Shown piece after piece: positions 2,280 through 27,684 of a stretch of DNA of 64,000 bases. The position numbers were made by a program, and so were the translations under genes. The stretch comes from Lingula anatina (Eukaryota > Animalia > Brachiopoda). Position 1 is the stretch's first letter; each line of letters starts with the position of its first letter. The DNA is taken from contig CM120646.1 of the NCBI GenBank assembly GCA_051362555.1, positions 19,034,001-19,098,000 on the forward strand, in the 5' to 3' direction. The notes below the pieces were generated by a model. It saw only the letters and a list, made by a program, of their open reading frames with translations, searched no databases and was not told the DNA's origin.

Positions 2280-3323
2280 TTACTCGTGGTAGAGCAATGT
2301 GCGCTCCCAAATATCTATATTGGCCAAATAAGTATCCTTTATTAAAAAAACGTCTTCAATGCGCTTCCACCTTCGCTCTGAACCCATGGGTCCTAGGGGA
2401 TAAACTTTCAACTGTTTCTTTATCAGTGCCATCAAGTATGGCTTGTATCCCATACGTGTGAACCAAGCTTCAAAATATCGCACCTCCGGACTCGACACTT
2501 TTGATTTGAAAAACCGCCATTCTAGTGTTATCACGGGGACATTGACTACTTCGAGAAACTTGTCGGATTTATTCAGAGCTTTAAGCTCTGATCCCTCTAT
2601 ATCCATTTTCATGAAAGCCTTGGTAAACGAGGCAGGTATGATACGGGCTAGATCGTCCATGGTGGCTGTGCGCTTTATGAGCTTCCTTTGCTCATCTTTT
2701 ACCGATGATTCTCTACTATCCTTGATTCTGGTTCCACCGATGTTTTTACCATCCATTTCAAACACGACATCTTGGTAGACATTTGATAGAGGGGATGTCA
2801 CTAAGGTCACTCTGGGTTCAAAGTGTCCTAATTGCAGAGTCCGACGAAGACGGTGGGCCGTGGGCGGGAATGGTTCCACGGCAATCACGCGCCTACCAAG
2901 ACCGAGAGCAACTACTGTCCACAGTCCCAAATTCGCTCCGAGGTCTACGAAATCGAGCTCGGGGTCTGCATTAAGAATCAAGCGAAATATACTGACTAAG
3001 TCACTCTGCCAAACCTTACCTCTAATTAAATTAGCAGAAATTATCTGATCGTCGTCAGCTTCATATACGCAGATAGGCGTGCTGATAAAGCCCTTGCCTT
3101 TATATGTAACGCATTTGAAATTATCTGTGCTGGGTGCTGCTAAATTTAACACATTCGGGATTGTGGGAGATCTGTTCTCAACAAGCCGGCGCTCCGTCTT
3201 TTGATTTTTCTTTGATTCCTTCCGGTTGTACATGTATCTATATTTGACAAACATGATGATTGGCATCATCGATAGAAACAAAACAATGGCCATTAGCTTT
3301 TTCTTGTACATTCTGGTGTTCAT
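2280..3323 (-). CDS. FkbM-family (Methyltransf_21) SAM-dependent methyltransferase, type II membrane protein, 347 aa, single coding exon
   Basis: Motifs FVDLGANLG, VIAVEP, NIGG, TMDDL, MKMDIEGSE and ITLEW are typical of FkbM/class I MTases. A basic N-terminus (YKKK) precedes the hydrophobic anchor LMAIVLFLSMMPIIMFV. The ORF-track start at 3329 is TTG; the first ATG is at 3323. Confidence 0.9.
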   Translation of the reverse strand: MNTRMYKKKLMAIVLFLSMMPIIMFVKYRYMYNRKESKKNQKTERRLVENRSPTIPNVLNLAAPSTDNFKCVTYKGKGFISTPICVYEADDDQIISANLIRGKVWQSDLVSIFRLILNADPELDFVDLGANLGLWTVVALGLGRRVIAVEPFPPTAHRLRRTLQLGHFEPRVTLVTSPLSNVYQDVVFEMDGKNIGGTRIKDSRESSVKDEQRKLIKRTATMDDLARIIPASFTKAFMKMDIEGSELKALNKSDKFLEVVNVPVITLEWRFFKSKVSSPEVRYFEAWFTRMGYKPYLMALIKKQLKVYPLGPMGSERRWKRIEDVFLIKDTYLANIDIWERTLLYHE

Positions 3324-4381
3324 AGTCAAATGCTTCTCTCTCCCCAGATATTTTTGTTCGTTCTTCTCTTTGTATCAAATTAACCAGTCAGGATTGCAAA
3401 ATATACTGACCCACATTTACTTGTGTGGTATATTAAAATCATGGTTTATTGATTAAATGATGTTATGTCATATTTTATTTAATGGTCTTTTGCAATAGAC
3501 TTGCCATTCAAAATGGAATATTTTGATTTAAAAGGTATGCCTAGGGTAAATAGTATTGTTTTTTAATGTTAAACGATTTAAAACCATTTAGTTGACTACC
3601 TTGTCTGTAGTCCAGAATTACGTTATATGCTATGACTTCATTGAATGGGGTGGTACTCTTTGGGCTGGTCCTGGCATGGCTATGATAGAGCATAGTTTCT
3701 GTTAAAAAGTCTCCATATTTCGGTATCGCCTGCACAGATGATTTTGAAACTTTACACACAAGTACCCAGTTTAACGGTGCGTGAATTGAGCGAAACAGTA
3801 TGTCACAGTATTGTTGCTATGCGCCAGGATGGTGTAAAACAGACAGACACATACAAAGCTAGACAGATTATTGTCTCACAAGAGATGATAGGCAGATGGC
3901 GCTGCAGCCTTACAGAGGTATATAACTGATATTGATACACCTAAGCAGAGAACATGCCCAGGTATCCACAGTTTACCACCAGAAACGGTTTGCTGCTACA
4001 ATTAAAGAAATGCAATCCGTTTCCTTCGAAATGAAGCACAGATTGCTACCAGGAAAAGTTTTTCAAGGATCTTTGCGGACGCTAGACCGGTTTTGGCAGG
4101 TTAATATACCAGACGTCTTAGCTCCCAGAGTACCTTTAGCTTAAAACCTCCACTTCATACACCATAGTGTGATTAAAAAATAAAAAAAAAACTTCCACTA
4201 TAGTCTATATAGTACTATGGTTTACCATATGTAAAATAAGTTGGAACACTCTACTCTCTGATATCAGGGGCTTCTAAAAGAAAATGAAAATTTTAAGTAT
4301 GACTTTGTAACTGACTACTAGCGCACCCTGGTGTTACAAAGTAATAACAGTCAACGCAATGATTAATATAACAGCAGTAAC

Positions 4382-6958: not shown

Positions 6959-7106
6959 TTATACATTGGTTGATAGCCTTGATATGGTCCCCTCGGGGTA
7001 AAGTTCCTCTGGGTAATTCCGAGGATCCATGGAGTGAGGGGGTGGTGGTCTGCCATAGGCAGGGTTTCGGGGGTGGTAATCTGGCTCAAACCCAGAGTCA
7101 TATGAC
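6959..7106 (-). CDS. kirre: Kirre-like last coding exon (RSYDSGFEPDY...GTISRLSTNV*)
   Basis: ttttctag acceptor, phase 2, TAA at 6959-6961; class I PDZ ligand like the Neph/Kirre THV ending. Confidence 0.9.
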
Positions 7107-10100
7107 CTAGAAAATAAATATCCATTTGTTGAAAATTGTACCTATATCATATGAACATGCCCGACAAATAAACATATTTACACGTTATATATATGCACAT
7201 TGTGGTGCAATGTGCATATGTCGGTAGAACCAATAACAAGGCATTAAATTAACATAATTCTGTAGTATTTCTTTACTTTTTGGTTATTCTGTAATTTGTT
7301 AAGCCATCAATCTTCATTATATTATTAATTTTCCCACACAACTTTAGTTATAAATGGATAAAATAAATCAGTTTCATCTAATGGTACTTGGTATAGTGTA
7401 GTCAGTTTAGATAGAATATTAAACTAAGGAAAGATGTAGGTGCTGTTGAAGGCCAAATTCATTCTTATAAACCTCCCTAGGTTGTATAGTCTAAAAACAC
7501 TCCAAACATGTAATCATGTATGGACTTAAATTTCTCTATACACACACATACAGTAATTTCTTCCCTTAGAAGAAACAGCCTTCCACAAGAAAAAGAGCAG
7601 TGTACGATAATGAAACTAATAATGCGCATCTATGATAACTTAAAAAGCTGTACCCCAACCTATCGTAGGGGTGTCCTGCCCCCTTGTCCACATCATCCAG
7701 GTATTTGTATGCTTCAGGATAGGTAGGAGGGAAACCATAGCCATTGGGATACGGCCTGCCATTGGGCTGAAATAATACAGTCATAATATAATTTTTCATC
7801 ATAAAACAGGCATATTTCTAAAATTGAACTACAACTGATTTATCTAAGGAAAAAAAAAAAAACTCTAAGTTTTATAGTTCTAACGAGTAATCAAACAAAG
7901 ATAACAGTCTTCTTTGACTTTACAGCTTCAAGGCTAGAATTCTTTTCAACAGACCCTGATGCCAAATCTCCTAGTCAGTGAAAATTTTAGGCACTATATG
8001 GTTAACACTGCTGATGGCCACTGTGAAGTAATCAAACTTTTACATGTCTTACCTTATAGTTCACATTGAGCTCGTCATACTCTGCTGAATATCTGCTGTA
8101 GTGGTCTTTGTTGTAGTCATTGCGCCAGGGTTCCAGGGGACCGTTGTAGTCTGGGTTCTTGTACTCCACTTTAATTTCTGGCTTCTTTGTGGCTGAGTCA
8201 GCAGAATCAGTATCAGATGTTGACGCTGTGGAGAGAAAGGCAAATGAAGTCTACAACCTTTTTTAACTTTATGTTGTATCTAAATAGGAAATGGTCCTCT
8301 CTTGCAATCTGACAAAAGAATATAGAGATATTTTTGCATACTTTGTTTAGATTTAGATATCTTTAATTTGGTGATCAATGACATCGTCCTACAAGGACTT
8401 TCTTTTATGCTACTAAATATTTATCAACAGTTTCTAAGACTAAATATGGTGCTTATAAATGGAAGCTGGTACCCAGAGACACTTATATGAGTATGGGGGA
8501 AATCTAGATAAGAACTCCAGAAGCAAAGAATTAAAAGAACTTGCCAAAGAAATTAATATTCCTTATAATCCCTTCCACCTGATTCCAAACAAATGCCCAC
8601 ATGGATCAATAAACATTTTTTGTAAAACACAATGACAGAACAATAACACAATGCTTATACCCGAGAGCACCATATCATTTTGATTCCATCAACACAGCAA
8701 GTGCCATTCACAAATAAGGGCACAGTATGCTATATTTCCCCAAATATCTTCTTGTTATTTTACATTCTATCTATGCAAGACAAGAACATTAAACAGGCTA
8801 CAAACAAAGTAACACACAAGCACAGGAACATTATCTTTGGAACTAATACAAACAAAAGGCCAATCAATGCTCTCAGTTTTATCATGTGTTAGTTTTATAT
8901 GCTGTCAACTGTATCCTGCACAGAAATTTACACATGAACTTGTCCATTTCGTGAACTCTGTCATCACAGTGATTTTATTTCTCTTTCAGGAATCCACTTC
9001 AACAAATGTTGTTCACAAGATTAAAAAGCACAACACCAATACAAAATTTCAAAGGCAAAATAAACATCCACCAGGGATAAAATAATTATAAGCAATGGAT
9101 TGGATACAAAGAGTATGCCTAGTTTCTATGCAAATCAAATGTATTAACAAGGCAGCAAAGCTGTCAAATGTACAGACAAAAAACAGGAAATAACTATGCA
9201 CAAAATAGGCTACTGTCAATTCTGATGCAAAAGTACATTATGTTAAACTGCAAATTCAACATCAAATTTTAATTATGCTCAAGCAGCACCCAAAATTGTG
9301 TTTTCTTCTATTCTGATGCAATATTACATAATGGTTAACAGCATAATGACCGTCAATTTTTAATAATAAAATATACATGGATTTTCAGAAAATGTGACTA
9401 GCATGGGTCTTCAAGCCCGTGGAACTTCAAAGTTACACCTTGAAAATGCCAATATGTGAAAAATTAAATTTTCACAAAAAAACTGTTTAACTGGCAGTAA
9501 GAATTACCAAACAGACTGCATTGCCTACTGAAGCTGTATTTTAGTCCCATGTTTCTTTCCTGTAAGTTTGAGAACAGTAAGTGACATGGTTTTTCTTAAA
9601 TGGTCATCATGGGGGCAGTGCCCAAAATAGTTTTTTTTTTTTCAAATTTTGATGCAATATTACATAATGTTTAACAGCATAATGATGAGTATTATGGATA
9701 TTCAGAAAATGTTACTAGCAAAGGTCTTCAGGCCCATGGAACTTCAAAGTCACAACTTGAAAATGCCAAAATGTAAACAAGACAGCACTGTTCTGAATTT
9801 TTTTTTTCCATTTTTAACAATTTTTAACATAAAACAAAATTAACAGTTTACTGCCGTTTTTATATGATCAACTAAAAAAATTGATGAGATGGGAAAAATA
9901 TCAATAGAGCAGTGTTAAATGTCCAATTTCTTCCATTCTGAGATTCTGAACATAGTGAATGTCAATGATTGAATCTGACAAACTGCAATGATATGAGTTT
10001 ATTTCCATTTTTTGAAACTTTATTACACAATACAAGATAACAAGTTTACCATCATTTTTACATATGTTGTAAAGATGCAGGAAATGCCAAACAAACACTT

Positions 10101-13100
10101 TTACTTATCTTACTAATTAAATAATGAAACATGCATGTTAACATGCCTAAGAATTAAATCTGAGGAAATGTGAAAAAACAGCATTTCTTCAAAATAATGG
10201 CCCAATTAAGCTGATTTTTAAACTCAACCTGCGTTTTAGCAGGAATGACCACTCCTGTGAGTTTACTGACAATTGGCCTATCTGTTTTTCTTATTTTGTG
10301 TTTACAGTGTTGCATATATGCTGAAAAGTGAAAAAAAAAAGCATAACTAAAATAGTGGCCCGATCATGCCTATTTTCTAACTTGACCTGCGTTATAGTAA
10401 GATTGATTACTCCTATGAGTTTCATGACAACAGGCCTAACGGTTTTCCTTGAAATGTGTTTACAGTGTTGCATATATGCTGAAAAGTGAAAAAACAGCAT
10501 AAGTTCTACAATAATGGCCCGATCATGCTGATTTTCGGACTTGACCTGCGTTTTATGGATATTCATCAGCTCTGTAAATATACAGCCAAAAAGTAAAACT
10601 GCCTTCCACTTATCGCGTTTACAATGAAAGTGCACGGCGACAGTGACAGTGACAGTGACGGCAACGCCAGCCACGACAGACGCAGGTGATGGCAATATGT
10701 ACAGACACATCTGTACATATTTACTGTACTGTTTGAGAACAGTAAGTGACATGGTTTTTCTTAAATGGTCATCATGGGAGCAGTGCCCAAAATAAGTTTT
10801 TTTCAAATTTTGATGCAATATTACATAATGTTAAACAGCTTAATGACCATCAATTTTTAATAATAAAATATTAGTATCATGGATATTCAGAAAATGTGAC
10901 TAGCAAAGGTCTTCAGGCCCATGGAACTTCAAAGTCACAACTTGAAAATGCCAAAATGTAAACAAGACAGCACTGTTCTGAAATGTTTTTTTTCCATTTT
11001 TAACAATTTTTTTAACATAAACAAAATTAACAGGTTACTGCCATTTTTATACGATCAACTAAGAAAATTGATGAGATGGGAAAAATATCAATACAACAGT
11101 GTTAAATGTCCAATTTCCTCCATCCTGAGATTCTGAACATAGTGAATGATTGCATCTGACAAACTGCAATGATATGAGTTTATTTCCATTTTTGACACTT
11201 TATTACACAATACACGATAACAAGTTTACCATCATTTTTACATAATCAACTAACAATTTTGTTAAGATTCAGGAAATGTCAAACAAACACTTTTATGTAT
11301 CTTATTAGTAAAATAATAAGACTGTTAACATGCCTAAGAATTGAATCTGAGGAAATGTGAAAAAACAGCATAACTTCTAAAGTAATGGCCCGATCATGCC
11401 GATTTTCGAACTTGACCTGCGTTTTAGTAAGATTGATTACTCCTGTGAGTTTCATGACAACAGGCCTAACGGTGTTCCTTAAAATGTGTTTACAGGGTTG
11501 CATATATGCTGAAAAGTGAAAAAACAGCATAAGTTCTACAATAATGGCCCGATCATGCTGATTTTCGAACTTGACCTGCGTTTTATGAATATTCATCAGC
11601 TCTGTAAATATAAAGCCAAAAAGTAAAACTGTCCTCCACTTATCGTGTTTACAAGGAAAGTGCACGGCATCGGCGACGGCATCGGCATCGGCATCGGCAT
11701 CGGCATCGGCGACGGCATCGGCGACGACAGACGCAGGTGATGGCAATATGTACAGACACATCTGTGTCTGTACATAAAAAGCAGAAATCATAATAACAGT
11801 ATTTATGTTTAAGAAAATCACAGGGCTGATAAATTACACTATCAAAGTCTTTAACAGGCACATCCAAAACAGTCTAGCTTAAAATACTCACATTTTAAAA
11901 AATAAATTTCAGCACCCAAGAAGGGTTTCAGAAAACAAAAGAAATCGAAGAAATGTTTTAAATAAGAACAGAGTCTCTTTAAACCAATCTTTACCTTCTA
12001 TTTCAATTGTAGGTATGACTAAAAACATGTACAAAGGCAATATTATATTATTTTAAATCTACCCTTAAATACTTGAAAGTATCATATAATTTACAAAGCA
12101 TTTGTATACAAGTATTAAAGACAAAACAAGAGTCAAAACTTCAAAAATTATAAGCAACATTGGGGCTATATGTATGTAACTTCAAAACCTTACAAAAGAA
12201 AAAGATTGTGCTCTTCAATAAACAGCAGTGCAATATAAATTCAGATATGTCTGTATGTATGCTAAATAAAGGAACACATGCAGTCACTTAACACAGGTGG
12301 ATACAGGGGAAACCCACTACAGATACATTGGGACTTTGAGGTTACGGGGTGAAAGCAGAACGAACCCTCCCACAACCTGATTTTCCTGGATCCACCAGTG
12401 GGTAAATGATAAAATGTCATGATCTTCAAAGTGAGATAGATAAGAGCTATTACCTTCTTCTCTGCTCTTGGTCCTCTGATATATAAAGATGATGATGGCT
12501 ATGATGAGGATTAGTCCCAGTCCACCAAACACACCTCCCATCACAAAAGCAAGGGGGATAGCATCTGGAATGGTGAAATATATACGAATCTATGATATTC
12601 ATAGAGTGGTTATTAATATGGGCACAATATAACCCAAAAGTAATTTCCGTTTGAATTTGTGGACAATAAAAATAATTATCACAATATGAAACTCTTTTGG
12701 GATGTCTTCTTCCTTTTTTCAAGCAACCTAAACATATATCATACAAAGTCTAACAATAGTGTTTTCAGCAGTAAACAAAGTTTTCACACCAGTTAGCTAA
12801 TAATTTTGAAAGAAATGTGTAATAAAAGCAACACAGTGAAGCAGAGACATGTTACAATTCTAAAAAACAACTTTTTTCTTAGTTAATGCCCACTACGGGC
12901 AGCTAAGAACACTCACTAAACAATATTTGTCACAGAAATTTATACCCATACTGATTGCTTCTCTGATGTTAAATAGTTGAGGCAATATTTTCAAAATGTG
13001 TTTTAACAACTGATATTGTTATCTGTATGACAGTTATAATGTCAGAGTAATGTCTGCACAAAGATCTGCACAACTCATGAAGCAGCATTATTCAAACCAG

Positions 13101-16100
13101 TACAATGAGTGCCCAATTTAAGTAACAAAGTGAAAACAACTTTTTTTCTGTGTGACACCGCCTAGTGTTGATTTTAGTGTTAAACTTCATCAACATTAGC
13201 TAAGTATTTCTTTCTTTTCTTTAAAACAGTTTTGAAGTGTTACTGGAAGTGTCATTGTCTAGAATAGTGCACTTTAAAAAAAAACTGACACAATATACCA
13301 CACAATATACCTGTTAAGCAAGCAAAGTCATCTGAAAGGAAGGACACACACACAGTTAAAAAAAAGAAGAATAAAAAGCCAAACACACTATTTACCTCCT
13401 ATACACCAACATGTCTCTGTAACATGCAAACAAAATAAAAGATAGGCTTGGATGATTGAACAAAAAATAAAAAGAAAGAAGCTACACAACATGCTTGTTT
13501 AATATTTGCAGAAAACAATGTCTGTCTTGATTTTCAACCAAAAAGAAAGTAAAATGGGTGACAAAATAGCTAAGATATGGAACACAGAGAAATATTTATA
13601 CTACTGCAACAGACAGAGCTCTAGTCTGTAGAATGTCTTGTCATAGTCTGACCTGCCACCTACCTTTTTGTTTGAGCTTGATAACCAAGGCATCAGTGCC
13701 ATAGGTGTTTTTGACACTGCAGTTGTAGTCTCCATAGTCTCCAGAATGGACATTCACTATGGTTAGTATGCTTTTTCTGCCAGTTGGAAGGTCTTCCTCT
13801 TCTACTTTGTATCTGGGATAGTAATTAGATACGTTTACAGTTTTTATTTCAGAAAATGAACTCAGCTCAACACCACCTGCATGTCTTACTCGATTCTTGT
13901 AATAAAGTCACATTTAGCTGACAACATATCACTTACGGAGGCTGACTGCAATCACAATCACACTTACCTTGCACTGTCTCCAAACTGCAGCAAGTCCTGC
14001 TCCTGCCTGGCCCATCTTATCTGGTCAGGTTTGGGCACTGACTCAGTCAGGCACTCTAATGTGGCTATATCTCCCTCCTTGGCGTATTGCTCTTCATTAC
14101 TGATCACCTTAGGGGGTCCTAAAATATCACACGAGTAGTCGTGATAATAAGACTCATAACATGGGAAATATGAAAAGCAATTAACAAAAAAAATCAAATT
14201 GACATTTTCTGACATGGTGTGCAGCGCACAGACAATATTGGTAATTGATCAGTCACTTCTCTGGTGTCAATCGTTACTTGCCCCCCAAAGTCACTTACAA
14301 TATTTGTCACATCTGAATCAACAAGTAGGCCATTACCTTTACTCTCTTCACATAAGAGCATACATAATTTTGCGTAGTACCTATGCTAATATTCAAGGCA
14401 AATATATCAGCCCTACTTACCTTTCTTCAATAAATGCAATTCCCTATTAATCTCAGAGAATCCAATGACATTAGAGTAACATATATAAATGCCCAGGTCA
14501 CTTTCGGTCACTCTGGAAATGGTCAGTGTGTCCGAGCTGCTGAGGATACGCTGCGACCCCTTTTTCTTCCAGACTACTCGCGGAGTAGGGTTCCCCTTTG
14601 TCTTACAAGTCAGGGTGGCCGTCTCTCCAAGCTGTGCTGCAGCATGTTTGATAGGTACTGTGAACCTGGGGCCATCTGAAAATTAGATGAATGAAACCTT
14701 TATTCAGTTGCCCAGAAAGATCTGACATTATAACATTCAACAGTTGTATCAGTATTGGAGTTTTTATTTAGACTTCTCTGCAGCAAGTTCGACCCGCTGT
14801 GTTCATCCTGGAACCTCTGAACAAATAATTACAGAACCAAGCATCAACTTGACTTTTTTTAAGAAAAGAAAAAAACTGCCATTCTAGCTATAAGTTGGAG
14901 CACTAAGATTGGTATATATACTTACATTCTACAGCCATCTGATAATTTTTCTTGGTGCTTCCAACACTGTTGATGGCTTCACATGTTATAATATTGCCAT
15001 CATGGTCAGCTGTTAGCGAGTCCACTCTAAGATATTTACTGTCAGCATCACCTATCTCCTCATTGTTTCTGTACCATCTGCAAGAGGCCATTATACTTGA
15101 TAATGTACAACGATAAAGCCTGTTGTCATAGATAGAAAATACATCAATGGAATATATAAATCATAGAGAATTAATAAAATAAAATAAAATACACATTCAA
15201 TCAATCAATCTTCCATGTGCCATTGATAACTTACTTCCAGGTGATGTTGTTGGGGTTGCCCCTTCCTTCACATGAAAACTGTATAGATTCTCCTTCTTTT
15301 ACACCTAACTTGGGACTAGCAGTTATTGTGACTTCTGGGGCATCTGGAGAGGTGAACAAAACGATTACTTATTTATAGTATAAGAAAAATAAATGAGCAA
15401 TGATCTTGATTTAATTTAAAAATCAATAAGTAAGCTTTACAGTTTATTATAAAATTAATTTCAGCAGAGAAGAAATTAAAAGAATCTAAAAGAAACACAA
15501 ACTAACAAATTGAATGTAAAAATAACAATATAAAATATTATGCCACATACACACACACCCACACAGTATAGCTGAGTTAGAAAAAAAGCAGTGTTTACAG
15601 AATTTAATATGGTCGCTCCACCATATTTTCCATCTAAATCACACCATTTCCCACAGTAACATATTTTGTCTTTTCTATGTGACACTCTTATGAAATGCTG
15701 CATAGCTTACATAACACTTCCAGACTGGCCGAGGTGGTCAAGGGGTCAGTAAGGAAAGCATTCATAGCCTGGCAGGAGTACCTCTTCCCCTGGTCAGTCT
15801 TGGACGGGGTGATGGTCAGGTAGCTTATTGCATCTTGTCTCTTCCCATCTGCCTGGGTTATTGCTGAAACACAGAAAGTAAAATTGAAAACACATGAGAA
15901 CCATAGAACAACCAGCATAAACACCATTAAGAACATCTTAGCATTCTTTCTTGTGGTTTATATGAACCCTATTTTAATGATTCTGCCAGCTGTCAATTTG
16001 TATTGAGAATTGTGCTAGGTTGTGCTAGTGTAATCTAACAATTGTGTTAGTTGTGACTGTGGCACAATGGACTAGATTATTAATTGTACAACTTCTAAGC

Positions 16101-19100
16101 ACAATCACTTTCACTATTCACATCCATGCACAGGAATACAGGATACATTTCATGTGTTTATGTCATTTCTTATCATCCTATATCTCAGAGCCATAATTAC
16201 ATTGGAATAAATTCCTTCGGGGGAAAAAAGACAAATAATCATAACCCTAAATATCGCTATGACTGAATGCAACAAGGCGTGCGTGCAAACATATGCACCA
16301 AGAATACATACCTTCATAAGAGACATTATCAGTGACTTCTGCGCCTTCTACAAACCACTTCAGCGTGGGAGCTGGCTTGCCGTTGTTTGCTCTACATGTC
16401 AAATTGTAAGGCTGACCCTCCTCTACATTGACTACAGGGCTGCCGTAGATTATAGGGAAATTGGGAGGTACTGAAATTAATAAGAAATATTCCAAAATAT
16501 GATTTATGCAACAATCGGTTTTTATTGGGACCCACTATCAGTAACTACTCATGTTATCAGCAATAAAAACTTTTAAGAGTAAATAAAAAGTGTAAATTTT
16601 TTCACTAAATATTGTTTTGTACTAACTGCAATATTAACATAACTTATCTCAAATGAGGGTTGTATACACAACTAAACTAATATCTAAAATAATTCTAAAT
16701 CAAATATATTCTAACTTTTTTATTTTCACTTCTGTTAAATAATAATATTCTACTCTTCTTTAAAATGTGTTTTTGGAAAAGAAAAAATCTGAGAAACAAA
16801 CAGTCTCTGAAGGTAAATTAGAGAGAAGTAATACTCACAGAGAACTGTTAACAGTACACTTCTACTCCTAAATTCTAGCTTTTATTTTTATTTTCTCTTC
16901 TGTTAAATAATATTCTACTCTTCGTTAAAAAACAATTTTGGAACAGAAAAAAATCTTAGAAACAAATAGTCTCTGAAAGTAAATTAGGGAGAAGTAATAC
17001 TTACAGAGAACTGTTAACTGTGCACTTCTACTCCTGACCCCTGGCGTGGTATGTGTGGCCCCTATCTGACACTGGTATACGTCATCATCCTGGAGTTCTG
17101 CTTCCACTATCATTAGGTCATAGACACCTTGAAAAAAAGAAAACAAAAACATATTGTCATCATCATCAGTCTATTATATCTCTATAAATGTATATGACTT
17201 AGTATTAACTTCATCCCAGTGTCCCAAATTAAGATTATACAACTTCACTGTTTGCAATAATCATCTCTTACAGTAATGAGTCTGCCCTTAACATACCTCA
17301 ACTCTTGAACAATTTTTGACAATTATCACAGTAACAAATCTGTATAAGACTAGCCACAAAAGGTGTATTTCACAATTATGGCAATATCCAGTCAAGAGGG
17401 TTATTAATTTAAGTAAACATTTTCAATGGCATGCCATACTTTTATTAATGTATCCTTCAAAACAAAATAATTTTCATCAACAGTTGATTAAACAGTCACA
17501 AACAATACAATACAAATCGATACAACGAGGAACAGCGAATGATGATACAACAAATACTAGAACTATTTCAGTATTTAAACACTGGAAGAAATGTACAGTC
17601 CCAGCACAATGGGGACCCCAGACGTACTGAGATAGGTTACACACATAATCTGATATTTGAGAAATACATTATACACAGGGTCTGACATACGAGCAAAAAT
17701 AAACACTGATTGTACAAGAATTTCTCTCTCATGCTATTCTAAAGCTGGATAATGCTGATAGACTTGATGGGATATCTTGCAATGGTTCGAGAAAACTATA
17801 AGATTGAAACTGAAGAACAGAATTATATTGAGAATGAAAACAGAAGCCATCGAATAACTGTGTATGGAAAAAGTCTCTCTGTCCCCACAAGAAGTTGACA
17901 CAATGAGCAGTACGTAAAATAAATCATAAGGAACAAGCTGATTATTAAGAATATCATAAAAGTTGCATCTGTCAAAGAAATGGGCTAGTGCCCTGTAGAT
18001 TACTGGGCACATACTACATTTAGAAATAAAAGAACAGCACCAATAAGAGAATAGAATGATAAAACAAAGCCTCTATTAAATGTCTATAAAAGAAAAGAAA
18101 TTAAAGAAAATATGGGTACGATTTGGATTAGGTAGAAAAACAGTCTTGCATTTTAAAAAAAAAAAAAAAATTTCCAAATAAATTCAGATGTTAGGAACCA
18201 TTTTGGTTCACAGATATGGGAAAGTAACCATTTAATTTGGCTGTTTCACAAGGCAGTCAGTATAGTTGGTCAAATAATTCAGATTCAGTTGCTGCTTTCT
18301 GCCTTCTACAATCCATCTTTTGTGAACCGCCATCACCATATATTTTGATAAGAAAATTTCAAAAAAACATCTCATTTTCACTGGGTATCTAGACCCATGC
18401 ACGACAGAGTCAAAAGTCATCATGTATTCTTATCCCAAAAACTGGCAAGTCATATTTTTATGAGGTAAAGTAGCAACTGCGCCTGCCATGGAAATACTCA
18501 CTGTAGGTTCCGTAGGGTCCTGAAGTCAGTGAATGGAAAACGAGCAGTGACATGGACTGACATATGTTTTACAGCTAATAAGGCTGTGAAGACTGTACCT
18601 ACAGTGTATGAGCAGTGGAGAGAAAGTGTGCGTGTTTGACTGGTTACAACTGGTTACTATGGAATTTTGTCTGGAAGCTAGAAGTAATTGTGCTCTTTTG
18701 ACTGTTCAACAGTCAATGTAAGAGAACTTTTCAATCCAAGCAGCATGGAGTATGAATTAAGTGCTTGTCAGGAGTGTTGAATCTGCTGCTTACTTATCTA
18801 AATTTATCTCTTAGATCAATTTACCAAACCAATGAAATAATCTGTGTTTCAGAGACTCCAATGGCACTCTAAATAGACTTATTACTTAATTTTTATTTTT
18901 CAACATCATAAGTTTCAAGGGCAGATATGGAGTATTAAAATATAGTGCAGAGAGTGCTTAAATGTATCAAAAAAAAAAAAAAAACTGAGACATTAAAATC
19001 AACAAACAACATTCACATCAGCTGAGAAAAAAAAGCCAATAAGAAGAAAAAAACTTTGATCCAGTAACTTGTCAGTAACTATTTCAATGCCAGTAAACCA

Positions 19101-20609
19101 AACACATGGAAAAATCTCTCCCATTCTGCTTGTAGAAGGTTAACCTCTAGCGCCCTTAAATAAACTGTTGACTTTATCATCTGCTGCAGTATAACACCTC
19201 TAGTACAAAGAACAATGCCCATAAACTAAAATGCAATATATCTATGAAGCTTGGTGCAGCTGCAACAGCTACAACTGATTCTTGTCGAAAAAAAAGTGCA
19301 AATGCAGTATCACTTCGACAGCAACAAAGTTCAAAGCTCAGTGGGTTTTTTTTGTATGATAAATGCCTAAGTTATGTTGAAAATACTGTACATAGACAGG
19401 CGATGTTTTAAGAATAAATACACTTCATCCCTTCCTGTAGCAAAATGGTTCTCTTTTGCAGTACTAGGTTTGAGATAAGCCTTCAGACAGCTTTTTAAGT
19501 CAGGTGATCTGCCGTGATGGCTCAGTTCGTGGGACAGGAGCTGCGTAACATCTGAACATTGCCTGCGCACTGTCTGAGACTCACATATAAACAGAGTATT
19601 CAAAATACTTGAACTGTCAAGTATCCAGTGCAAGTAAATAAATTTTCAACAAGATTCTTTCAAAAAATATTTGTGGATCTGGAACACAAGGGGACAAAGT
19701 TGTTTTAAAAAATGTCACCCATTGTTATCTGTTCTATTTACATCTCAGCGTAGTTTTTGTAAGTGGACCAAGAAAAATGTTGTTGTTTTTCTTGCAATGG
19801 CAGAGATTATGTGACCTTTGATCACTTTTTTCGTTTGCCCATGAAGATATTTTATGGTAGTGCCCATACATAATTTTTCTGTATGCAAGAGAAAGCAACC
19901 CATTGCAGTTTTTGTGATCTTGTGATGAGCTGAAAGGGGCATCAACATTTGTGTCACATCTAACACATATAATCTGAACATTTGTCCATATAATCCAATA
20001 AAAAACATATAATTACAATTTGTAACCACTACCCACCAGTGTTACACTTACCATTGTTTTCATCTCCCAGCATAGAGTATCTCTCAAACCCTATAAGTGA
20101 GCGGTCAGTGCCCAGTCCAAACCCCCCTCTGGTCCACTGGACTTGCCCCTCTCTGTTCTCCACCTTACATTTCATGATGACTGTATCTCCCTGTTTCACC
20201 TGCTGGTCTTCAGGCTGTACCACAAACCCCTGCTGGCAGTAGACTGAAATAGAGAACATTACCAATATGATTGAAATTACTTATTATTACTTATTACTAA
20301 TTACTTATTATTATTGGCAAAACTTTGCTGGGAAATTAGTCTGAAACAGAGAAAACACACCAATAACAGTTTAAAAACCCATTGTTTTCTGTGACAAATC
20401 TTTCTTGATAACATACTTCAGTGGAGAAAAATGAACCAATAAGCTGAAAAATATTTATTTTGTGAACTTCACAAAATAAAACTTACTGCCTGTTCCATTT
20501 TCAGCTAAAAAGCAACATTTTTTTTAGAAAAAATATTACACAACTTCAAACTATTTTTGTTTATGCTACAGCAAAAACAAATGCAAAATTTAATGCTTTT
20601 ATATAGCTA

Positions 20610-20675
<66 letters not shown>

Positions 20676-23600
20676 TTTATAGGAAGGGTAGATAGAGTGC
20701 TGACATTCGGGTAAAAAAAAGCAAAAGAAAAAATCCTCTTACAGAAACAATCAGTCTGCAGATTTACAGAGTTTACACATCCAAATGACCACTTCTACAA
20801 GTTCAGCATAAATAAACTTTGTAATGTTACCTTGAAAAAGTTCAACTTTGCCTGCTATAAAATGTGTTAATCGGCCACACACATGGGGAACTAAGAGCAA
20901 AGATACTCAGTTAACTTATTTATGAGGAGGAAGCTCCCATCTGGAGAAAAGCAAATCAAAGGAATTGTCTTTTTTCTAGACAAGCTTTAAAAAGTTTATG
21001 AGCAGGATGCGGTAGGTCAATCTTTCTCTTCACATTTTTCAATTTTGTGCATGATATTGAGACAGCCTTTTATAAACCTGATTGGAATCCCCAGCAAGTT
21101 TTGGAGCAATGGAGAGAAGGATGAAAAAGGAGAGCAAAGAAAAATAGAGAAAAATCAATACCCACTGAAGCAGCAAACGTGTTTCCATTATTTCATAATC
21201 AGCGTCATGAACCCACGTTGAATGTATTAACTGTATCGCCCAATACATTGATTGCTTCCTTTCCTAATTTGAACTAGTCAAATCGAAGAGCACCCACTCC
21301 TGTCTCTGAACCACTTCAATACAACATGCTCTCTTATCGAAAAATTAATAAACCATCATCTGTTTATATAAATGGTTCTACAATTCAAATCCAATATCAT
21401 CCCCAAGGCAATGATGAATATTGATTAAGTAATAGTTTTTAAGTGACACGTCTGCCTCCTACTGCTGAAGACTTGTGTAGTGCAATTTCATTGCACATAT
21501 ACGTGTCAACAATTCAAAACCACTGAATTTCAAAAAGAGGGTCTGTACCAATGCTACCTTACTTTTTGTCATATCAAATCCTAAATAAACTTAAAAACCA
21601 TCTTATATTTTCATTTAAAATTTGACACACCTAGATTTTCACTAATTAAACCAATTTTATGTCACCGTAACAGTGATTTTGGCTCTTGATTTTACCTGTT
21701 GATAGACTATACTATCACAGTAATTCTTAAATTAATTTCAGCAAGCGTAGCCAGAGCTACTTCTCTGGTTTTCAAACAGTGAAAAACATGTAAAACACAC
21801 TGACACGTGTAAGGATATATCACTATTTATCCACCCAAGTATATCAAACTGAACTCTTAGCTTATCTACAATGCCTATCTAAATCTGCTGTGCCCTCTGG
21901 CTCTGTTAAGGCAAAACCCTGGGAACCAAGCCACATGGCTCTGTGCTGTGGGCAATGCTGAAGTAGGCAACCCACAGCACAATTTCTCTCTGGCGCAGAT
22001 CAAACACTATTATTGGCACAATGCAAATCTAGCCCTTGAACCAGACATCAGATTCCAATTTTCAAATTTTCCTAGGAGAGAAAACAGTTCTCAGGGTTGC
22101 CAATCTAAGGTCAATGTAGCAATACTATTAAACCTGGTTTTATATAAAAAGAGTCTTAAATTTCTATGAGAAAATTCTGGCTGTGGTTTTGGCATGCTTT
22201 GCAGCAATGTTTTCTTTTAGAAGAGCTACATGTACAGATTAAATATTTCACTGTACATGGATATACCCCCCAAAAAAGAACATGGACATGACTATCTATA
22301 CATTATACAATTAAAAAATAATCACCTACTGGTACATTTAATTGTTCTGACCTAATTTTACCTCTCCAAATCATCCAAACAATCCATTAGTCCCCTAATT
22401 AAAATAAATATGGAGGAGCCTTGTCAGTATTATGACATAAAACATGCTCACATGTCAAAGAGGAGTCATCCCCCTCTCTGTACCATATAACTGTATACAC
22501 ATAGCCACTGCCGCTGATGGTTCTTCATTTGAACTTGATTAATTGAGGTGGACTCATTAAAATATAGCCACACAATGAAATGCTTTAGAAGATAAATGGT
22601 TGGAAGTGATTACAATTTAAGTTAGTTTTACAAAATCACATAAGGAGCAAACATTATTGGAAATACTAATATTTCACTCCTGGTTGAGGTTTGTAATAGG
22701 GAGTACATATTTCATAAAGCAGTATGTACTGGAGGGGTGGGGGGAGGGAGATTTCATGGTAGACCTATAGAAATTGTGGTGAATGATAGAATATACCATT
22801 GGCAACCTGTTGATTACATTGTCTCAGGTGCCACCTGCTGTGATACATATAAAACACAGTCCAAACTGAATTCAGGCCAAGCCAAAACCTTGGGTCAATC
22901 TGTCCAAACATGGAACACATACTTAGGAGGGCCCTCTCTGCAGCATATGTACACATGTCAGACCTTCTCTGTGCTTCACACAGAAACAATAAGGTGGAGT
23001 CATTATATCATCTGGAATATACATGTTCTTGGGAATGTTTTCAAGAAAGTGTTTCTCAGTAAAAGGCCCTTACCGACAATGAGACGGTTCTGAAATTATC
23101 TGAAGTTGAGATATGATTACTGGGTATATAGTTCACTTTTGTGGTTTATGGCCTGTCACCAAATAGACAGACTGAGTGGTAATCTGCTTCAAATTTCATA
23201 AAAAATCTTAACTTGTTCTTCAGTTAAATGGAAGCAGAGTACAAATTCATTACCTTGGTAATATCTTACTATAAAAGGAATCTATACTCCCCCTACTCTG
23301 TACTCTTTGATTCTAAAGATGTACAAGATTTGAAGAGATTTCAGAATTACAAGAACCCCACCTTCTTCAGACTCAAACTGGAGCCAGCTTTCCTTAAGAT
23401 AACATATCCCTGCTTTATTTCATTAAAACATATTAACCTCAACTTATAGCCTCGATAACAATCTACACATCTCTCTTTGTGGATCAGTAAAAGAAATCTT
23501 TAAGCTTCATTTCCTGAACCAGAGTTCTTTCTTCCATCTTGGCCTGTTTTTTATCATGGCGGACCTTTGATGTGGCAGTGGAACAAAGTAATGGCCTGAC

Positions 23601-26600
23601 AATCATGAGCAGGGCAGGAGATTGCCAGTGGTTCTTGTACAAGGTAACCCCTTCAACACTCCAGAGGGGCCTGATATAATATGGACCATTGGCCAGGCAT
23701 GTGTACAGCTCTCAGGTATTCCCTATGAGGAAAAAGCCCCTGGTTTTTATAATCTGAACCATCTGGTTATTGTTCTGTCTTGGCTTTGCAAAGGTGTTCT
23801 TGGCTTGGTTTCGCATGGTGTAGTTTAGCAATATTTGAGTAAAGCATATTATACATGTATGCTTGAAAGGTGCTGTGTGTTTTTCTTTACAGAATAACCT
23901 TTAATGGTTTAGTTTATGAGAAATGGCTTAGAAAATATGTCTTGTTTTCCAGAAATTTTGCTACATCCTTTTTGATTTCTCAGAAATGAATTTGTCATTA
24001 TGGACAGTCTTTTAAATATTTTCTTATTCATTGATTTATTTATTTCTGTCTATGCTAAAGTTTCAAAAATAAGTCTACACAAGCTGGTACTTTAAGTGGC
24101 CCATGTTCTTTATACAGTAAACAGGACCAGTATTATCAGAAAGTGGTAACTTCATTTGGAACATGGTACACAACTGTTTGCGGTGTCTAATCTTATATCA
24201 GACAAGAAGGCGTTCAACATTTTTTTTTGTCTCCAAGACCCCATGTTTAGTTTAACTGTATCATCTCCACTTGTCTGAATTCATCTATCATATTCAGATT
24301 TCATTTTTTTATTTTGGTATATGAACAGAATTATTATAGTAACTGTTATGGTTTGGAACCATGATGTTCTATCATAAATCCATGTATATGTCCAATAAAG
24401 ACAATAAATGGTACAGCAAAGAACTAAATACAGTCACTGATATTTGAAATGGATATCACATGGGTTCAAAGACAGTAAATAAGGCCAATGGAAAAGAGGT
24501 ACAAGGAACAGGATGACTAATTCCAAGGAGTGGAATACCACCACATTTTGTGGAGGCCACAGAACAATGCTATGTGGCACTCATAAAATAGTTTTATTGG
24601 GACAAGATAATGATAAGCTCTGTCCAAATTATTTGGTATCTCCACAGTTGGCCAAACCAGGGAATTCCTCCTTTCTACACATAAATTTCATGGAGAATAC
24701 ATTTATGCACATAACTTTTTATATTTGACAAATAAAATTACATTCAAAACAAAACATAGCACATAGTTATTGCTTTAGATTCATGATTTGATCATAATGT
24801 CTAATTTTTTTAATTGCAGAAAAGTGAAATTGTATTTTAAACAAATCTTGTTAGTTTTTTTTTTTTTACCCTTTACTGTCCAAACATCATTTTCTGTTGT
24901 AAAACATAGTACCATATATCTTTGTCAACTATGCCTCTTTTTTTTAGCTTCACAGACATTGAGTAACAGGCTCCAGAGAGCCCAGATTGTGGTTCCATGG
25001 GTTATGAAGTGGAAGATCTGGTAATTAACCACCCTCCACTGCTGTTATGAATCACTTCAAAGTGCTTGTGGAGTACCAAATTCCACACTACAGGTACTCT
25101 TTTTTTTATAGGCTTCATGTAGGATTAAATAGTGATTTCTAGGCCAGGGTTTTGATACTTATGAATTCCTTGGTGTATACATGCATGCTGGCTGATCTAC
25201 CTATAAAAGACTAATGCAGTTTACTTTGGTTAGGTATTCAACCTGAGATTTTATTCGATTTAACAGAGAGGCAATCTGGGCATTTGAGGACTCTCTAAAT
25301 GTCCTTGCAACTGTTTCACGAAGTTAATACCATAATTGATATTTAATAATCTTTGGGATTCTTGTCATTTAGATAATATTTTTTGATTTGACCACCTCAA
25401 ATACAAGTCTGTAGTAAACTATCCACCAGATACTAAGGGCTTAGCTCAATGAGCCTGGGAAATTTTAGCCTTTTATCAAAGCTGGCCCATCCCTCATGAT
25501 GGCTCCATAATGCCAAACTCCTGAGGTGATGCACTGAAGCTCATTGGTAGATACCACATTACATAATCATCTGATCACTCCTGGTATTTTACACAGGTGC
25601 TGGTGTAATCTCAGTCTGATACTACTGCTGTGTTGGTAAATACTATGCAGGGTTGTGTTCAAAGGTTGGGCACCATGCATTTTACAATACCAGAAGACCA
25701 ACACTGTGTAAAACATACCTTTTGAAACAGTCGCAATAGGCTTACATTAATTTTTCCCCACCTTATAAAAAATGGCCAACAGGATCCATTCAGATGTAAT
25801 AAAATTGCACAAAGAGGGCACCATGAAATAAGTGAATCTTGAGCCATTAATTATTACCAAACTGTTGTGTAATATGCTTAAGAGCAATTCCTGTTAGTAA
25901 TGTGCAAGACTGTCTGTAACAGCTGGTCCATCATTACTGTTGATATACAAGCCACAAGACACCTCCTGGCATGGACACTCATTTATTTTAATTTACTCCA
26001 ATTAAAGACCATCAAAGGCAAAAGCAATACCACTATTAAATAGCATTTATCTAGTAAGGGTAGTATGCTTAACAGAAACAGAATTTAATCAGGAAAAATC
26101 AATCCTTGCAACATTAATTAACTCTATAATGAACTGTTATTCTTTCTTAGAGAAACAATAGACTGGGCCGCTTTTGTTTTCTCCTATAATTAACTTCTGC
26201 ATATAATTCAAATTTCTGTTTATGCTATAATGTTTAATTATCTTCATAATTACGTGGCGATGGGTCCCTGAACACTGAGTTATGTTTGTGCTCTTGGTTA
26301 TTTTGATGTGCTGGGTACTCTGGTATGCCAAATTGATAAATATAACAACTTAGGAAAGAATGACCAGAGGCTACAAGGTGATTTACTTATATATTAGCTT
26401 TCCTTGTAAATCAATTAATTTGTGGCATATGGTACCCATTGGTTTTTACTGTTTTTTGTGAACTAAACAAGAAATTGTTACGTTACGTATAAAAAACTTG
26501 ACTTAAACACTTTTGCAATTTGATTTTGATACAAATTTAGCAAAAACAGCCAATTTTCTACACAGATTCCTTTAATTTAGAAGGAGACACTAAAAGATGG

Positions 26601-27684
26601 AAACCCTTTTACTGTTTACAACACAGCTAGGGTGGAGTGACTCAAATAGGTGATTCAACAATCCCTCTGTATACAGACCACCCCCTATCTGCAACTTCCA
26701 CTAATTAGCTCCTAGCCCACTCAGTATTAAAAGCTCTGTTGGAAATCTATACTGACCATCATGGTTCATCAGCCACTGACCACTATCTACTATTTACAAT
26801 ATAAACAGATGCTCGTTTTCCCTGCTACATCCCCCTAGGTAAGTAAACCATGCATTTTCTATATCCCATGGATAGGCAAGATCTTCTGTTGGCGATCCAT
26901 GTCTTGGGGACCAAATACATATCAATTAAGTAAGTATCAGATTGATAAATACGCTGTGATAACATGGGCGATAACATGGGCGTGCACACTTCATCAACCC
27001 CACAGTGATGTCTGATTTTGTAATCAACTCATTAAAATTTAGCTGTCTCTCTGAATTCAGTGTTTTATGATGAAAAGGTTAACATGCTGATTGATTTTGT
27101 TTGTTAGTAGGAAATCAAATAAGAGCTATGCTTTGAAAATTCAAAACTGTCTTTTTATCAGTTGTGATTACAATAATGTCATAACCTTGGAGATCGTAAC
27201 ATTTTCAGATTTATCATGGAAACAGTTGGAGGGGGGGTCAGCCTTTATTCTACACCATGAATTTATTTTCATATCAAATATAAAGTTCAAGTAGCTATAT
27301 AAACCTTAATAAATACCTATAAATCTATATCTATCCATCTACTAATCAGCTACTGCTAATACATTTCTATCCATCCATATCAAGCTACCTATCTATTCAC
27401 AGACAGCCAGGGCATTATCACAATGCAGGCTTCTCTTTCTTAATATCCACTAGGATTGCACAAACCGGGGAAGTAAAATTGAAGAAGTGAAGGTTGGGGT
27501 ATAGAGTGATATATAATATTAAATATAATATAATATTACTATATTATATTTATTATTATATATTATATAATATTACTATAGATAGTATTACTCTCCAGTA
27601 TTACTCACCTGTACCCGCAAGGGCTAACCCTGTCAATAAGTGTAACAGTTTCCTTAAGATGGCCTTCTCCATGTTGTATTGCAT
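6959..27684 (-). CDS. kirre: Kirre/Neph (KIRREL, Roughest/IrreC, SYG-1)-like Ig cell adhesion molecule; 14 constitutive coding exons, 685 aa
   Basis: Exons join in frame through GT-AG introns (2058 nt in total). Ig1 QWTRGGFGLGTDRSLIGFERYSMLG...LQDDDVYQCQ is diagnostic of Kirre/Neph. Five Ig domains, no FN3 (so not nephrin/Sns), one TM and a C-terminal STNV PDZ-binding motif. Confidence 0.92.
7660..7766 (-). CDS. kirre: Kirre-like exon: cytoplasmic (PNGRPYPNGYGFPPTYPEAYKYLDDVDKGAGHPYD)
   Basis: 107 nt, phase 0-2, tatttcag / AG|gttggg. Confidence 0.85.
8053..8225 (-). CDS. kirre: Kirre-like exon: cytoplasmic (ASTSDTDSADSATKKPEIKVEYKNPDY...EYDELNVNYK)
   Basis: 173 nt, phase 1-0, ctctccacag / gtaaga; frame differs from the ORF-track call. 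Confidence 0.88.
9146..11775 (-). mobile_element. Non-autonomous Helentron/HINE (DINE-1/pearl-like) element with an internal ~1.1-kb tandem duplication
   Basis: Ends are aacaaGGCAGCaaaGCTGTC (stem-loop) + ATGTACAGACA and ATGTACAGACACatctGTGTCTGTACAT + A-run. It also has a hexamer microsatellite and ~160-bp internal repeats. Same family as 41593-43806. Confidence 0.8.
11995..12018 (-). CDS. kirre: Candidate 24-nt cytoplasmic microexon (VIPTIEIE)
   Basis: ttgcctttgtacatgtttttag|TCATACCTACAATTGAAATAGAAG|gtaaag; phase 1-1. Confidence 0.5.
12454..12564 (-). CDS. kirre: Kirre-like exon: transmembrane (DAIPLAFVMGGVFGGLGLILIIAIIIFIYQRTKSREE)
   Basis: 111 nt, phase 1-1, attccag / gtaata. Confidence 0.93.
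13311..13331 (-). CDS. kirre: Candidate 21-nt stalk microexon B (DDFACLT)
   Basis: gtccttcctttcag|ATGACTTTGCTTGCTTAACAG|gtatat; phase 1-1. Confidence 0.6.
13396..13416 (-). CDS. kirre: Candidate 21-nt stalk microexon A (ETCWCIG)
   Basis: ttttattttgtttgcatgttacag|AGACATGTTGGTGTATAGGAG|gtaaat; phase 1-1. Confidence 0.6.
13664..13812 (-). CDS. kirre: Kirre-like exon: Ig5 C-half (RYKVEEEDLPTGRKSILTI...DYGDYNCSVKNTYGTD...KQK)
   Basis: 149 nt, phase 2-1, tcccag / gtaggt. Confidence 0.95.
13968..14118 (-). CDS. kirre: Kirre-like exon: Ig5 N-half (GPPKVISNEEQY...LECLTESVPKPDQIRW)
   Basis: 151 nt, phase 1-2, attttag / gtaagt. Confidence 0.95.
14421..14675 (-). CDS. kirre: Kirre-like exon: Ig4 (YGPRFTVPIK...LTCKTKGNPTPRVVW...DLGIYIC...LLKK)
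   Basis: 255 nt open frame, phase 1-1, ttttcag / gtaagt. Confidence 0.95.
14926..15077 (-). CDS. kirre: Kirre-like exon: Ig3 C-half (KWYRNNEEIG...ITCEAINSVG...MAVE)
   Basis: 152 nt, phase 2-1, ttgcag / gtaagt. Confidence 0.95.
15235..15343 (-). CDS. kirre: Kirre-like exon: Ig3 N-half (YAPEVTITASPKLGVKEGESIQFSCEGRGNPNNITW)
   Basis: 109 nt, phase 1-2; absent from the ORF track, translated by hand. Confidence 0.93.
15711..15863 (-). CDS. kirre: Kirre-like exon: Ig2 C-half (AITQADGKRQ...YSCQAMN...SLEVL)
   Basis: 153 nt, phase 1-1, gtttcag / gtaagc. Confidence 0.95.
16312..16470 (-). CDS. kirre: Kirre-like exon: Ig2 N-half (LPPNFPIIYG...NLTCRANNGKPAPTLKW)
   Basis: 159 nt, phase 1-1, atttcag / gtatgt. 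Confidence 0.95.
16711..17036. repeat. ~166-bp tandem duplication including the 3' end and donor site of the Ig1 C-half exon
   Basis: 16731-16869 aligns with 16897-17035 (gagaagtaatact[c/t]acagagaactgttaac). Confidence 0.85.
17005..17127 (-). CDS. kirre: Kirre-like exon: Ig1 C-half (GVYDLMIVEAELQDDDVYQCQ...LTVL)
   Basis: 123 nt, phase 1-1, poly-pyrimidine acceptor, gtaagt donor. Confidence 0.95.
18502..18519 (-). CDS. kirre: Candidate 18-nt alternative microexon in Ig1 (GPYGTY)
   Basis: ttttccattcactgacttcag|GACCCTACGGAACCTACA|gtgagtat; phase 1-1, no stop. Confidence 0.55.
19450..19610 (-). mobile_element. Possible degenerate LINE (L2/CR1) 3' fragment
   Basis: Translation SPDLKSCLKAYL resembles the ORF2 C-terminal FKxxLKTxLF motif. 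Confidence 0.3.
20052..20243 (-). CDS. kirre: Kirre-like exon: Ig1 N-half (VYCQQGFVVQPED...MLGDENN)
   Basis: atttcag acceptor, gtaagt donor, 192 nt, phase 1-1. Confidence 0.95.
20614..20674. repeat. (TA)n microsatellite
   Basis: Perfect TA run. Confidence 0.97.
27609..27684 (-). CDS. kirre: Kirre-like coding exon 1: signal peptide MQYNMEKAILRKLLHLLTGLALAGT (whole exon 27609-27765)
   Basis: Acceptor poly-T-cag at 27766, phase-1 donor CAG|gtgagt, in-frame upstream TGA; joins to VYCQQG. Confidence 0.85.

Follow-up and report, generated by a model that had tools for sequence, protein, structure and literature searches.

The window analyzed here, a stretch of 64,000 nucleotides of Lingula anatina DNA, contains a Kirrel gene on its minus strand and raises the question of whether one intron of this gene holds two real microexons that are used one at a time or two stretches that resemble exons by chance. 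A first-pass annotation had proposed the former for the intron between the fifth immunoglobulin domain (Ig5) and the transmembrane (TM) exon, pointing to twin cysteine-encoding exons, here called A and B. Kirrel/Neph proteins serve in kidney-type filters and in the choice of synaptic partners. If A and B are real, the direct function that they suggest is control of the covalent dimer state of such a receptor.

The host gene was identified by protein comparison. An exon in the window matched the Lingula anatina protein "kin of IRRE-like protein 1" at 100%. The encoded protein has five Ig stretches according to Pfam, one TM segment and a cytoplasmic tail; its best similarity is to Kirrel/Rst/SYG-1 proteins, and its best solved relatives are KIRREL1 and Roughest (Rst). 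The gene is therefore a Kirrel/Kirre/Neph gene, as had been claimed, and the candidates do lie between Ig5 and the TM exon, downstream of a donor at 13664 and upstream of an acceptor at 12564. When translated, the minus-strand exons from 27684 to 6959 gave RefSeq isoform X1 apart from five residues at two places. The first coding exon (27609-27684, minus strand) encodes three signal-peptide residues unlike those of RefSeq, which come from another haplotype or assembly. Near the C terminus, RefSeq also extends the 7766 exon by two residues (7654-7660, minus strand), as would be expected if its donor lay 6 nt downstream. In the form that skips A and B, the final Ig5 strand leads almost directly into the TM segment. 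None of the gene's 14 other introns is shorter than 155 nt.

Two neighboring features were also found in the window. Downstream of Kirrel, an uninterrupted open reading frame of 364 codons (2283-3374, minus strand) encodes an FkbM-type methyltransferase domain (PF05050, E value of 2e-13). An internally duplicated 2.6-kb repeat (about 9146-11780) occupies the cytoplasmic intron and draws 12,000 to 20,000 RNA reads per run at 88 to 95% identity, mostly on one strand in stranded runs. It represents a transcribed family of high copy number, probably a non-autonomous transposon.

The anatomy of the pair was then checked at the DNA level. The coordinates, the 21-nt length, the 1-1 phase and the absence of stops were all confirmed for both exons, together with the 64-nt spacing and the 39-nt distance between donor A and the putative branch site (Table 1). 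Both candidates follow a CAG acceptor and precede a GT donor (gtaaat for A and gtatat for B), and they are stop free only in the frame set by the flanking phase-1 donor and the TM exon acceptor. Splicing to the upstream exon would create a Glu (A) or Asp (B) codon across the junction. As originally described, both peptides have a cysteine at position 5 with I or L after it; A encodes two cysteines, and B encodes one. Having a length between 3 and 27 nt, AG/GT ends and a preserved frame, A and B fit the microexon definition at the DNA level, and their joint inclusion would keep the reading frame as well. Only two yTnAy sites are present in the A-B intron, at 13372 (TTTAT) and 13356 (TTAAC), 23 and 39 nt from donor A, respectively; consensus matching predicts the second as the branch site. 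Upstream of A, only weak branch matches were found (13468 and 13436), and the TGCATG motif beginning at 13428 places a UGC at -12 relative to the acceptor. A 51-nt longer form of A starting from an AAG acceptor at 13446 was discarded because of the poor acceptor. Outside the splice consensus, A and B are identical at 15/31 positions (P of about 0.015), a weak hint that they may have been derived by duplication.

Table 1. Features of the Kirrel locus, in window positions
Feature	Coordinates	Strand	Description	Evidence
Kirrel coding span	6959..27684	-	Signal peptide, five Ig domains, TM, cytoplasmic tail	
Third candidate microexon	18502..18519	-	18 nt, phase 1-1, gtgagt donor, internal codons PYGTY, in the Ig1 intron	
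Constitutive exon	13664..13812	-	Second half of Ig5, phase-1 donor	Spliced reads
Acceptor region of A	13417..13500	-	Long T-rich tract, 28-nt AG-free zone, TGCATG at 13428-13423	
Candidate microexon A	13396..13416	-	21 nt, phase 1-1, internal codons TCWCIG, two Cys	Sequence
A-B intron	13332..13395	-	64 nt, donor gtaaat, T-rich tract, UG repeats, 54-nt AG-free zone	
Candidate microexon B	13311..13331	-	21 nt, phase 1-1, internal codons DFACLT, one Cys	Sequence
Constitutive TM exon	12454..12564	-	TM segment	Spliced directly to 13664 in 31 reads
Cytoplasmic microexon	11995..12018	-	24 nt, in RefSeq isoform X1, absent from X2, used as control	RefSeq

Stop-free AG...GT pairs could also arise by chance in a T/TG-rich intron, in which case A and B would be pseudo-exons that are never meaningfully spliced in, leaving a Kirrel gene of the usual kind with its single annotated microexon. 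We consider this somewhat unlikely. Candidates were defined by a rule comprising a YAG, the pyrimidine fraction, an AG-free zone, the donor match, a length of 3n from 9 to 30 nt and the absence of a stop, and the 1099-nt stalk intron was subjected to 2000 dinucleotide shuffles for each of three block sizes at four threshold settings. Two same-length, nonoverlapping candidates appeared at frequencies of 0 to 0.0005 with the two stricter settings and 0.003 to 0.011 with the two looser ones; these are not blind P values, and they overstate the surprise, because the thresholds were picked after A and B had been seen and the pair had been chosen among many introns. A pair of the observed strength occurred in no more than 1/2000 shuffles, which argues against pseudo-exons, whereas the loose thresholds give about 1% per 1.1-kb intron, and a genome scan covers very many introns. 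With the strictest setting, three candidates were obtained from both strands of the window (128 kb). Besides A and B there was one further candidate, 18 nt long and located in the Ig1 intron, and all three fall inside the 13.3-kb span that codes for Kirrel. None was found at that level in the 115 kb outside the Kirrel span, the 7.4-kb phase-1 first coding intron included, and this again speaks against a chance origin. The loosest setting gave 12 matches on the minus strand and 5 on the plus strand, among them the annotated cytoplasmic microexon.

Splice-site strength was scored with a matrix trained on the sites of this same gene. On this scale, the two acceptors were constitutive-like (8.0 and 8.7). 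Constitutive donors scored 5.7 to 13.1; donor A, at 6.3, was near the bottom of this range, and donor B, at 1.8, was weak; the weakness of donor B favors the pseudo-exon explanation. T/G-rich intron DNA tends to encode Cys, Trp, Leu and Phe. The Cys content of A and B exceeded the intronic rate (P of 0.016 to 0.04, post hoc). As a DNA observation, the pair is more than chance would usually produce.

The third candidate lies at a junction of its own interest. It occupies the position in Ig1 where the Kirrel of Lineus has twin 8-amino-acid inserts, and by eye it shares with one of them (PGTLY) the pattern P-x(0,1)-G-T-x(0,1)-Y. It is absent from RefSeq, and no depth was seen over it in four runs swamped by repeat reads. 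Two bivalve Kirrels have about 5 extra residues at the same Ig1 junction, and short optional or extra segments directly after the TM segment occur in Lineus and in two land-snail Kirrels. Kirrel genes thus acquire short optional exons repeatedly at three spots, at each of which Lingula has an annotated or candidate exon. Such recurrence raises the prior for A and B being real; it does not amount to conservation of A and B. The rarity of the pair in shuffles, together with the finding that the only three candidates in 128 kb all lie at Kirrel junctions with optional inserts in relatives, suggests that A and B are likely real.

Use of the candidates was examined in eight of nine raw-read RNA runs with the same species label and no source tissue given, mapped four at a time. 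For the first four, 6 to 25% of each run was read, and features were reported only when supported by at least 3 reads. The direct joint from 13664 to 12564 was covered by 4, 7, 17 and 3 reads in the four runs. The skip form is the default form in RNA; these four runs yielded neither a joint into A or B, nor any other joint within this intron, nor letters between the two sides of the skip joint at the 3-read threshold. The depth was zero over B and near zero over A, with a value of 0.05 in run X2 that fits the end of an intronic pair. The result of 0/31 would cap inclusion at about 9%, provided that single reads are detectable; mates may have been counted twice in the 31, about 11 partly placed reads lie outside the tables, and the placement of a 21-nt piece is uncertain. 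In the four further runs, the depths were 0, 0, 0 and 0.1 in the 457-nt bin that contains both candidates, and reads from the repeat swamped the joints. RefSeq contains neither exon in any of its three isoforms, though the 24-nt cytoplasmic exon was captured there, and among 40 candidates there was no short protein fragment from around the stalk.

The lack of inclusion reads and of A and B in RefSeq favors pseudo-exons. However, the RNA runs miss the annotated microexon too. The TM exon was joined straight to the next constitutive exon in runs X1, X2 and X4 (17 reads, agreement of 0.99 to 1.0), with the RefSeq-annotated cytoplasmic microexon skipped in all three; the loose ends at 12454 in run X7 were mixed (agreement of 0.66). 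Since the same bulk runs also skip an annotated microexon, the RNA test of the stalk exons is a weak one. Brachiopod kirrel is described as broadly expressed in juveniles, the presumed filtration site included (bioRxiv 10.1101/2020.11.15.378034), so bulk RNA would be dominated by nonneural transcripts.

The same reads bear on another explanation, in which the acceptors are used and the donors are not, so that A and B would be alternative last exons of secreted or re-anchored forms. Read-through of donor A reaches a stop after two more codons and would produce a secreted ectodomain ending in cysteines. Read-through of donor B (13252-13331, minus strand) encodes a TM-like 17-residue hydrophobic stretch and a short tail, which on this rival reading may be an alternative membrane anchor or a GPI-type anchor. 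Its mean hydropathy of 2.11 over 17 residues is reached by only 4/397 intronic YAG sites, and secreted and short-tailed forms of Kirrel3 are reported to arise by exon extension (PMC10698715). We nonetheless regard this explanation as very improbable: the depth was zero at 13197-13388 in 4/4 runs, though a long terminal exon is easy to map, the intron has no AATAAA, and the hydrophobic run stems from a 12-nt tandem duplication at donor B together with a T run.

Next, the spacing of A and B was considered. The rule invoked in the first-pass annotation, that donor-to-branch distances below 50 nt prevent joint splicing, is a published criterion of steric exclusion; it was set in human, where it applies to 57/629 clusters of mutually exclusive exons (PMC5740500). 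Both predicted branch sites of the A-B intron fall below this distance. The pair resembles sterically exclusive pairs in its 39-nt donor-to-branch distance, equal length and equal phase, and differs from the human ones in its 21-nt exons and its dominant skip-both form, the threshold itself being human (PMC5740500). The A-B intron is also far shorter than the shortest other intron of the gene, in a comparison with 14 introns of this one gene. Because inclusion of A together with B keeps the frame, decay cannot enforce exclusion.

It is on this point that a third explanation departs. Only one exon may be real, more likely A with its UGC and better donor, or both may be independent cassettes, whose joint inclusion would add 14 residues with three cysteines. 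Nothing downstream forbids the in-frame combination, and the donor scores of A and B are unequal. Some invertebrates, such as Drosophila, commonly have introns of about 60 nt, which favors independent cassettes. The optional exons of Kirrel3 combine independently (PMC10698715). We find this explanation unlikely, given that all other introns of the gene are at least 155 nt long and that A and B, with their equal length, in-register Cys and similar UG tracts downstream, look like two alternatives for a single position. Exclusion of the docker/selector (Dscam) type was also considered and set aside. A 12-nt perfect inverted repeat has its arms at 12842-12853 and 13408-13419 and covers acceptor A together with the first nucleotides of that exon. 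The best duplexes at the acceptors were, however, not significant against 200 shuffles (P of 0.085 for A and 0.625 for B).

The first-pass annotation had also proposed regulation by Rbfox from the TGCATG before acceptor A. The motif is there, and the Rbfox reading of it is weak because TGCATG occurs 19 times on the plus strand of the window; for want of specific evidence, Rbfox was not retained as the main regulator. The UGC and the T-rich tract before A would be explained at least as well by the signature of the eMIC domain of SRRM proteins (SRRM3/4 and Srrm234). eMIC-dependent microexons combine a UGC close to the acceptor with strong branch points and extended pyrimidine tracts free of AG, and the program is neuron restricted in nonvertebrate bilaterians (PMC8797185; bioRxiv 10.1101/2024.09.17.613571). 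The UGC is found in 74 to 79% of known eMIC targets and is not strictly needed (bioRxiv 10.1101/2024.09.17.613571). A and B resemble eMIC neural microexons in being 3n in length, under 28 nt and preceded by a T-rich AG-free tract, and they differ from them in that UCUC repeats are not evident. The remaining features are split between the two: A has the UGC at -12 and a 28-nt AG-free zone without a good branch point, B has a strong predicted branch site and a 54-nt zone but lacks the UGC, and the complete combination is found in neither.

What inclusion would do to the protein depends on the cysteines. The skip-form protein has 11 of them. Residue 28, within the presumed signal peptide, accounts for one, and each Ig domain has a pair, leaving ten in the mature ectodomain. 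If included, the cysteines of A or B would be extra, unpaired, extracellular and near the membrane. For stalk or hinge cysteines, the likeliest outcome is an inter-chain disulfide; alternative outcomes would be retention in the endoplasmic reticulum, bonding with another protein or an internal CxC bond.

In the reading that we favor, A and B are genuine microexons that are usually skipped, are likely used in neurons and exclude each other sterically; we give it a probability of roughly 0.4. Most cells would skip both, and a minority, likely neurons, would include one at a time. Inclusion may follow the eMIC/Srrm234 route, with the UGC before A, the T-rich AG-free tracts and the strong branch site before B as its signals. 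Joint inclusion would be prevented as U1 on donor A and U2 on a branch site 39 nt away could not both fit. The seven added residues would bring one spare cysteine (B) or two (A) to the outer face of the membrane, and cis-dimers held by an inter-chain disulfide could then affect how avidly the receptor binds, how it clusters or whether it is shed. This reading is supported by the stalk and Ig1 inserts of Kirrel3, Terebratalia and Lineus, by the annotated microexon of the same gene that is likewise skipped in RNA, by the 15/31 match between A and B, by the elevated Cys content and by the eMIC-like signals. Against it stand the lack of inclusion reads, the 0/3 RefSeq isoforms, the absence of a stalk Cys in 30 relatives (see below), the weak donor B, the missing UGC before B and good branch site before A, and the codon bias of T/G-rich DNA. 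That at least one of the two exons is used is probable. We advance with considerable reserve a bolder version, in which Lingula neurons would set Kirrel by an either/or slot as noncovalent (skip), singly disulfide linked (B) or doubly linked through a hinge-like CxC (A), the Ig1 and tail microexons completing a three-site isoform code. The original interpretation as a whole is partly supported.

Should A and B prove real, mammals and brachiopods would have recruited short exons into this intron independently of each other, and the locus would offer a compact test of the neural microexon program and of steric exclusion in a lophophorate. Conservation was sought among relatives. Across 30 lophotrochozoan and priapulid Kirrel rows, a stalk insert was present in one, that of Terebratalia, and a stalk Cys was present in none; the Kirrels of Novocrania and Phoronopsis have the skip form. 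A metagenome scan gave three distant Kirre-like loci, with Ig5 domains 37 to 45% identical, the same phase-1 intron position and short introns, and with no candidate between Ig5 and TM. The missing conserved counterpart favors pseudo-exons. In a set of 70 rows, a Cys after Ig5 was seen in two proteins: the distant Kirrel-like protein P0138, with a single Cys directly after Ig5, and P0101, without a clear TM segment there.

Several known systems come close to the Lingula pair. The supplementary table on fly and mouse eMIC targets contains no kirre or Kirrel microexon; its only matches were two high-inclusion exons. The first-pass annotation knew of no description of the arrangement. For cysteine-bearing stalk microexons in the Kirrel family, this held in the literature searched, which included few subscription journals; it did not hold for an optional stalk exon, known from Kirrel3, or for twin inserts, known from Ig1 of Lineus. 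The Terebratalia transversa kirrel (QRF78290.1) resembles the Lingula candidates in that it comes from a brachiopod and has extra residues exactly at the Ig5/TM junction, and it differs in that its insert, known from one protein sequence, has 9 polar residues, no Cys and no shared sequence. In the Lineus longissimus Kirrel, the six proteins aligned at the Ig1 junction contain one insert, the other or neither in 3, 1 and 2 cases, respectively, and none contains both. The RefSeq isoforms X1, X2 and X4 parallel A and B in having two equal-length (8-amino-acid) alternatives and a skip form at one junction, whereas the Lineus inserts lie in Ig1 rather than in the stalk, have no cysteines and are known from proteins alone. 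Mouse Kirrel3 exon 18 (human KIRREL3 exon 16) is a counterpart in position, an optional exon flanked by the TM exon and the one in which Ig5 ends (PMC10698715). Like A and B, it is short, frame keeping and optional and lies in the same phase-1 Ig5-TM intron; unlike them, it is single, 36 nt long, without cysteine and without sequence homology to them (PMC10698715). It is dated to placental mammals, and no effect on cell aggregation was detected (PMC10698715). Optional Kirrel stalk exons, twin either/or Kirrel inserts, neural microexons and steric exclusion are each known already.
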